This document shows positions 54,058 through 54,513 of a stretch of 64,000 nt of DNA, one piece after another. Numbering within the stretch: the stretch's first letter is position 1; each line of letters begins with the position of its first letter. The DNA is from a phage: sequence record PZ053912.1. The stretch is one strand, 5' to 3'. The notes under the pieces are model-generated. The model was not told the DNA's origin, did not search any database, and worked only from the letters and a program-made list of their open reading frames with translations. The translations under genes and the position numbers were made by a program.

Positions 54058-54513
54058 TTATTTTAGATCTTCGGCCCAATCTAGTTTTAAGGGTTCTTTG
54101 TATTCACGGTCGAGAATAACCGGAATAGCTACATCACCACTGAATGATAGTTGGCCAACGTTATATGATAACGTTATATGTGGAGTGTAGTCGTCGAAAT
54201 CATGAGTAGCACCTAAAGCTCGTGCATACTGATGACGACATCTAAGATATTCGGAATCAAGAACTAAAACCAGTACAGCGCCGTCGTCGGTTTTCCATAC
54301 CTCAAAGTGTCCTGATTCGGCAATAGAATAACTACCACTAGACGTAGTATATGGTATGTTTACACGTGAATAACAAATTGTTGAATGAAGCTTTTCACGT
54401 GGTACTGGATTAGGAATTCTTAATTTACGCTGGAGGTCTTCCAGCGCATCAAGTGTTAATTCCGAAAATTTAGCTGCGACGTAGAGGCCTTGTGAAAAGT
54501 CCTCAAATTTCAT
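54058..54513 (-). CDS. 57B: 2H-phosphoesterase family protein (T4 gp57B / Acb1-like cyclic-nucleotide phosphodiesterase)
   Basis: 151 aa; two H-x-T/S motifs (HSTICY and HITLSY); T4 position upstream of 57A and gene 1. Confidence 0.7.

Follow-up and report, generated by a model that had tools for sequence, protein, structure and literature searches.

Organization of the acb1 locus

The window, that is the whole stretch of 64,000 nucleotides of phage DNA that was analyzed, belongs to a Mosigvirus of the JS09/HX01/ZQ3 type and shares 97–98% nucleotide identity with many deposited genomes. The gene studied here is encoded on the minus strand, downstream of the genes for the dNMP kinase (gene 1) and the tail-fibre chaperone (57A), and is followed by an ORF resembling an internal-protein (Ip) gene (Table 1). 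Upstream of gene 1, the slots that genes 3 and 2 have in T4 are likewise taken by ORFs on the same strand, and the order 4-2-3-1-57A-57B-Ip-tRNA is common to both phages. An initial annotation of this DNA had placed the ORF at the 57B locus by its position. This was borne out by the arrangement of 57A, gene 1 and the gene 3 and gene 2 slots, which follow each other as in T4, and the span given for the ORF was exact on the minus strand, from the initiating ATG to the stop codon. The gp3-gp1-57A-57B block was also found to be kept in the phages Acj9, S13, phi-ST2 and KP27.

Table 1. Features of the acb1 region, in window coordinates.
Feature	Position	Strand	Basis or remark
Ip-like ORF, 87 aa, N-terminus MKTYKEFIAE	53717..53980	-	Alignment with T4 IpI and two Ip-slot genes of 308Ecol101PP
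acb1 (gene 57B orthologue), CDS	54058..54513	-	ATG at 54513, stop included, 151 aa
C-terminal lid, residues 144-151, including the base-stacking W146	54061..54084	-	Predicted by homology
Second catalytic HxT motif, H112-I113-T114 (T4 H113/T115)	54172..54180	-	CAT ATA ACG
First catalytic HxT motif, H43-S44-T45 (T4 H44/T46)	54379..54387	-	CAT TCA ACA; catalytic role from PMC9117128
Gene 57A, tail-fibre chaperone	54513..54743	-	Pfam GP57, E=6.9e-23
Gene 1, dNMP kinase	54748-55482	-	Pfam DNMK, E=1.4e-96
TATAAATA, T4-type late-promoter motif in gene 1, about 355 nt upstream of 57A	55098..55105	-	Motif match only

The TAA stop codon of 57A overlaps the ATG of acb1 (TAATG; junction GAAGAATAATGAAA; GAATAATGAAA). 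The two genes adjoin in the same way in T4, although the overlap annotated there is 4 nt, versus 1 nt in the window. Given this overlap of stop and start codons, 57A and acb1 are probably co-transcribed and translationally coupled.

The late-promoter motif within gene 1 is present at the equivalent place in gene 1 of T4 (L001 5006-5013). When counted over the whole window, TATAAATA occurred as often as expected by chance, and the weight of the copy in gene 1 comes solely from its positional conservation with T4. This copy is a candidate promoter of a 57A-acb1 transcript, and acb1 is probably expressed together with 57A from late promoters. The position of the motif fits the published course of T4 infection, in which Acb1 activity sets in at about 15 min (PMC9117128). 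A generic scan for sigma-70 promoters and terminators around acb1 returned consensus-level matches only, which did not stand clearly above those found in shuffled sequences. Among the minor observations, a sigma-70-like consensus match (TTTACA-17-TACTAT, with an upstream TG) was seen at 54015-54043 on the minus strand, in the 77-bp spacer separating acb1 from the Ip-like ORF; an imperfect hairpin (AGGATGATGG...CTATCATCCT) overlaps with this match. The match could serve the Ip-like gene as an early promoter of its own.

The encoded protein is an orthologue of T4 Acb1

In Pfam searches, the 151-aa product matched the Acb1 family (PF23474) with an E-value of 1.8e-58 and a score of 196.8 bits versus a curated cut-off of 27, and the match extended from end to end, residues 8-149 being aligned on profile positions 1-144 of 144. 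BLASTP alignment with T4 gp57B/Acb1 (NP_049750.1, from NC_000866) was ungapped and showed 128 identical residues out of 151 (85%, E=2e-102). The PDB sequence search led to Acb1 of Erwinia phage FBB1 (7T26/7T27, E=7.9e-59), with identity in 89 of 141 columns (63%) of an alignment covering 140 of the 151 residues. In view of its 85% identity to the T4 protein and 63% identity to the FBB1 protein, the window protein is a plain 57B/Acb1 orthologue. The initial annotation, which had designated it as Acb1-like and as the counterpart of T4 57B, was therefore right, and undersold its own call in stating that it was not based on sequence identity, since the protein is this close both to T4 Acb1 and to the crystallized FBB1 enzyme.

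The T4 protein has 152 residues, its annotation beginning one Met earlier, and its gene likewise occupies the slot after 57A with a late-promoter motif within gene 1. The two proteins differ by 23 substitutions over 151 residues. At the codon level, comparison with T4 acb1 gave dN=0.13 and dS=2.3 (saturated), with a dN/dS ratio of 0.056, which indicates strong purifying selection on acb1. Homologues of Acb1 were present in 1470 phage records, with at least 99% identity in 119 of them, and Shigella phage SSE1 is among those carrying a protein 100% identical to the one of the window. The protein is thus already represented in public phage genomes and is nothing new; the gene is an ordinary, intact copy of acb1 from a T4-like (Mosigvirus) E. 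coli phage. As the best explanation of the locus, we retain a Mosigvirus orthologue of T4 gene 57B encoding Acb1, a small metal-independent 2H phosphoesterase, with a probability of about 95%.

Conservation of catalytic and ligand-contacting residues

The double HxT/S motif pointed out in the initial annotation is present in the protein, as HSTICY (H43-S-T45) and HITLSY (H112-I-T114). Such a motif alone is weak evidence and within chance, at least two H-x-[TS] being obtained in 14% of 20,000 composition-preserving shuffles of the protein; it is the full-length matches to the profile and to the sequences, and not the motif, that make the Acb1 assignment significant.

In T4 Acb1, the HxT/HxT catalytic tetrad is composed of H44, T46, H113 and T115 (PMC9117128, Hobbs et al. 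2022), and the H44A/H113A mutation inactivates the enzyme (PMC9117128). The bases of the ligand are stacked by the aromatic residues Y12, W74, F107 and W147, and the adenine N6 is contacted by E141 (PMC9117128). Two structures have been determined for FBB1 Acb1, one of the apo form (PDB 7T26) and one with 3'3'-cGAMP (PDB 7T27), in which the residues 145-152 of the C-terminal lid close over the ligand (PMC9117128). In the ungapped alignment with T4 Acb1, H43, T45, H112 and T114 of the window protein fall on the residues of the tetrad and, with the same one-residue offset, Y11, W73, F106, E140 and W146 fall on the others, so that 9/9 named residues are matched and none is among the 23 substituted positions. 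The protein thereby passes the check set in the initial annotation, for which a failure of the catalytic histidines to align with Acb1 would have been a refutation.

The analysis was extended to a seven-sequence alignment including the window protein, T4 Acb1 and five distant homologues from Straboviridae or related phages (Acinetobacter phage Acj9, Cronobacter phage S13, Vibrio phage phi-ST2, Klebsiella phage KP27 and Vibrio phage phiKT1024), whose identity to the window protein ranges from 48% to 29%. Y11, H43, T45, H112, T114, E140 and W146 were invariant, whereas the positions of W73 and F106 vary. A similar picture is given by FBB1 Acb1, which has the HxT/HxT tetrad, Y11, E140 and W146 in common with the window protein and differs by F and Y at the positions of W73 and F106, both being conservative aromatic swaps. 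In the same alignment, the homologue of KP27 (a Slopekvirus), annotated as a protein of 207 aa (L007:2459-3082), continues for about 55 aa past the conserved Trp of the lid, an extension that the six other sequences lack.

AlphaFold2 run on the single sequence gave a model of mean pLDDT 39.1 and pTM 0.30, unusable for a fold search. From the 63%-identical crystal structure 7T26, we infer that the protein has the compact fold of a 2H phosphoesterase.

Predicted mode of action and alternative functions

T4 Acb1 was found as a cGAMP-degrading enzyme by activity-guided fractionation (PMC9117128). In a T4 delta-acb1 mutant the cGAMP-degrading activity is lost and, as judged by plaque assays on E. 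coli carrying CBASS operons, the phage becomes CBASS-sensitive (PMC9117128). Nine additional Acb1 homologues have been assayed and 9/9 cleave 3'3'-cGAMP and cAAA (PMC9117128). By homology with the T4 and FBB1 enzymes, from which its activity, substrate range and time of expression are predicted, the window protein would bind in its U-shaped pocket a cyclic di- or trinucleotide with at least one adenosine (3'3'-cGAMP, cUA, cAAA or cAAG) made by a CBASS CD-NTase. Y11, W73, F106 and W146 would stack on the bases of the ligand, the adenine N6 would be read by E140 and the C-terminal lid would shut. The adenosine would then be twisted, allowing its 2'-OH to attack the 3'-5' bond over H43, T45, H112 and T114 by acid-base catalysis and without a metal, and the reaction would proceed through a 2',3'-cyclic phosphate intermediate to a linear product with a 3'-phosphate. 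This product would be unable to activate the CBASS effectors, so that abortive infection would be averted. The 23 substitutions relative to T4 could change the quantitative substrate preference of the enzyme.

A different function is suggested by some of the names under which the gene is filed, namely that of a 2',5'-RNA ligase/LigT-type or cyclic-phosphodiesterase enzyme of RNA repair, which would act on RNA ends, for instance in tRNA repair beside T4 Pnkp/Rnl. The PHROGs assignment (phrog_755, labelled 'RNA ligase'), the name 'RNA ligase' given to 57B in RefSeq, including the T4 record NC_000866, and the position of acb1 near the phage tRNA cluster all agree with it, as does the one further Pfam match, to 2_5_RNA_ligase2 (PF13563, E=0.012). 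This last match, however, is weak and restricted to residues 69-131, its 16.1 bits falling short of the cut-off of 27, whereas the Acb1 profile scores 196.8 bits, and the experiments on the T4 orthologue cited above yielded cGAMP degradation, lost together with CBASS resistance upon deletion of acb1. We regard a role in RNA repair in place of immune-signal cleavage as very improbable; a secondary activity on RNA ends is conceivable. The 'RNA ligase' label of 57B seems to have been carried over from the 2H superfamily. Members of this superfamily (LigT/2',5'-RNA ligases and CPDases, PF13563) do share with Acb1 the double HxT/S motif and a metal-independent reaction via a 2',3'-cyclic phosphate, whereas the cage of aromatic residues, the Glu that reads adenine and the C-terminal lid belong to Acb1, and the resemblance of the window protein to PF13563 is at the superfamily level only.

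Hydrolysis of cCMP and cUMP, which would make the protein an anti-Pycsar or a dual anti-CBASS/anti-Pycsar enzyme, had been proposed in the heading of the initial annotation, and this is its sole support, both activities having been published in one paper (PMC9117128). The anti-Pycsar enzyme of that paper is Apyc1, a class II phosphodiesterase of the MBL fold with two Zn and an HxHxDH motif that has no homology to Acb1, be it structural or mechanistic (PMC9117128). The activities are stated to be system-specific (PMC9117128). In the PycTIR/cUMP assay, wild-type Acb1 was used as a negative control (PMC9117128), and wild-type T4 Acb1 did not abolish the activation of PycTIR by cUMP (PMC9117128). 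In the window protein, no match to an MBL family was found in Pfam at E<=0.1, and the HxHxDH motif is absent from the protein, which contains 5 His. This half of the earlier proposal was thus wrong, Apyc1 being unrelated and Acb1 CBASS-specific, and we give an anti-Pycsar activity practically no credit. Apyc1 and the sponges Acb2, Acb4, Tad1 and Tad2 resemble Acb1 in that a phage protein removes the nucleotide second messenger of an abortive-infection system. They differ from it in that Apyc1 acts on cyclic mononucleotides through its MBL fold and two-Zn mechanism, while the sponges sequester the signals and do not cleave them; the Pfam search found no sequence relationship between the window protein and any of these five proteins. 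One may also ask whether the gene has been inactivated or is in decay, like that of BASEL phage Bas43, and is left as a remnant after selection by a Panoptes-type guard, since loss-of-function acb1 alleles selected by Panoptes do occur in Tevenvirinae (PMC13577387). Against this stand the full-length frame with all catalytic and ligand-contacting residues intact, the low dN/dS ratio and the large set of phage records in which the protein is identical or nearly so (at least 99%), and decay of the gene is hardly conceivable.

Relation to Panoptes and significance

Besides the CBASS signals, Acb1 also degrades cA3 (PMC13577387). In the BASEL phages Bas35-37, an intact acb1 gene confers sensitivity to type II Panoptes, whose guard is triggered by the depletion of cA3 (PMC13577387). 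Escapers from type II Panoptes mutate acb1, the allele of Bas43 being a nonsense one (PMC13577387). For type I Panoptes, the gene required in T4 is acb2 and not acb1 (PMC12657218). As the acb1 gene of the window is intact, it is no escaper allele. It might alternatively be an allele evading Panoptes, in which the 23 substitutions would spare the decoys 2',3'-c-di-AMP or cA3 while CBASS signals would still be destroyed. With all known ligand contacts unchanged, the sequence gives no hint of such an allele, which we consider very unlikely. Out of the two PCR primers published for Bas35 acb1 (PMC13577387), one has a match in gene 1 of the window, at 2 mismatches, and no match was found for the other, which shows that the flanks differ and nothing more.

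The phage carries the standard CBASS countermeasure of Tevenvirinae, potentially effective also against systems using cA3, and acb1 may at the same time make it a target of Panoptes, as reported for the related BASEL phages (PMC13577387). The practical value of the assignment lies in the annotation of databases, where many records of the Acb1 family are still labelled 'RNA ligase' or 'hypothetical protein' and could be relabelled 'anti-CBASS protein Acb1'; it is of little importance otherwise.

Variable region downstream of acb1

The 87-aa ORF occupies the variable Ip slot adjoining acb1 and belongs to the context of the gene, being no part of the enzyme. Its N-terminal signature is also that of T4 IpI and of the Ip genes of 308Ecol101PP. 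In the internal proteins of T4, this sequence targets the protein to the capsid and is cleaved after the Glu. The remainder of the ORF is about 31% identical to T4 IpI, and the ORF is assigned to phrog_13302, of unknown function. Its product is probably an injected internal protein. In T4, the slot downstream of 57B holds ipI, whereas the window has another internal-protein-like gene.

The Ip locus of T-even phages is hypervariable. In agreement with this, the slot following acb1 was polymorphic between phages with an identity of about 98% (53981-54057 in the window versus L002:2818-3515 and L003:3456-3893): SSE1 and JS09 contain ipI only, 308Ecol101PP contains ipI and the 87-aa ORF, and the window contains the 87-aa ORF only, with a difference of about 355 bp. 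The Ip anti-restriction slot beside acb1 has been described as an anti-defence neighbourhood (Hobbs et al., PMC9117128).

Beyond the Ip slot, the tRNA genes of the window are limited to two, for Arg(TCT) and Met(CAT) (52064-52218, minus strand), whereas the corresponding place in T4 contains eight tRNAs together with segB and the small RNAs rnaC and rnaD. An ORF listed at 51701-52093 with a TTG start overlaps the tRNA-Arg gene; its true start is probably an internal ATG, which would match a CDS of 345 nt in 308Ecol101PP.
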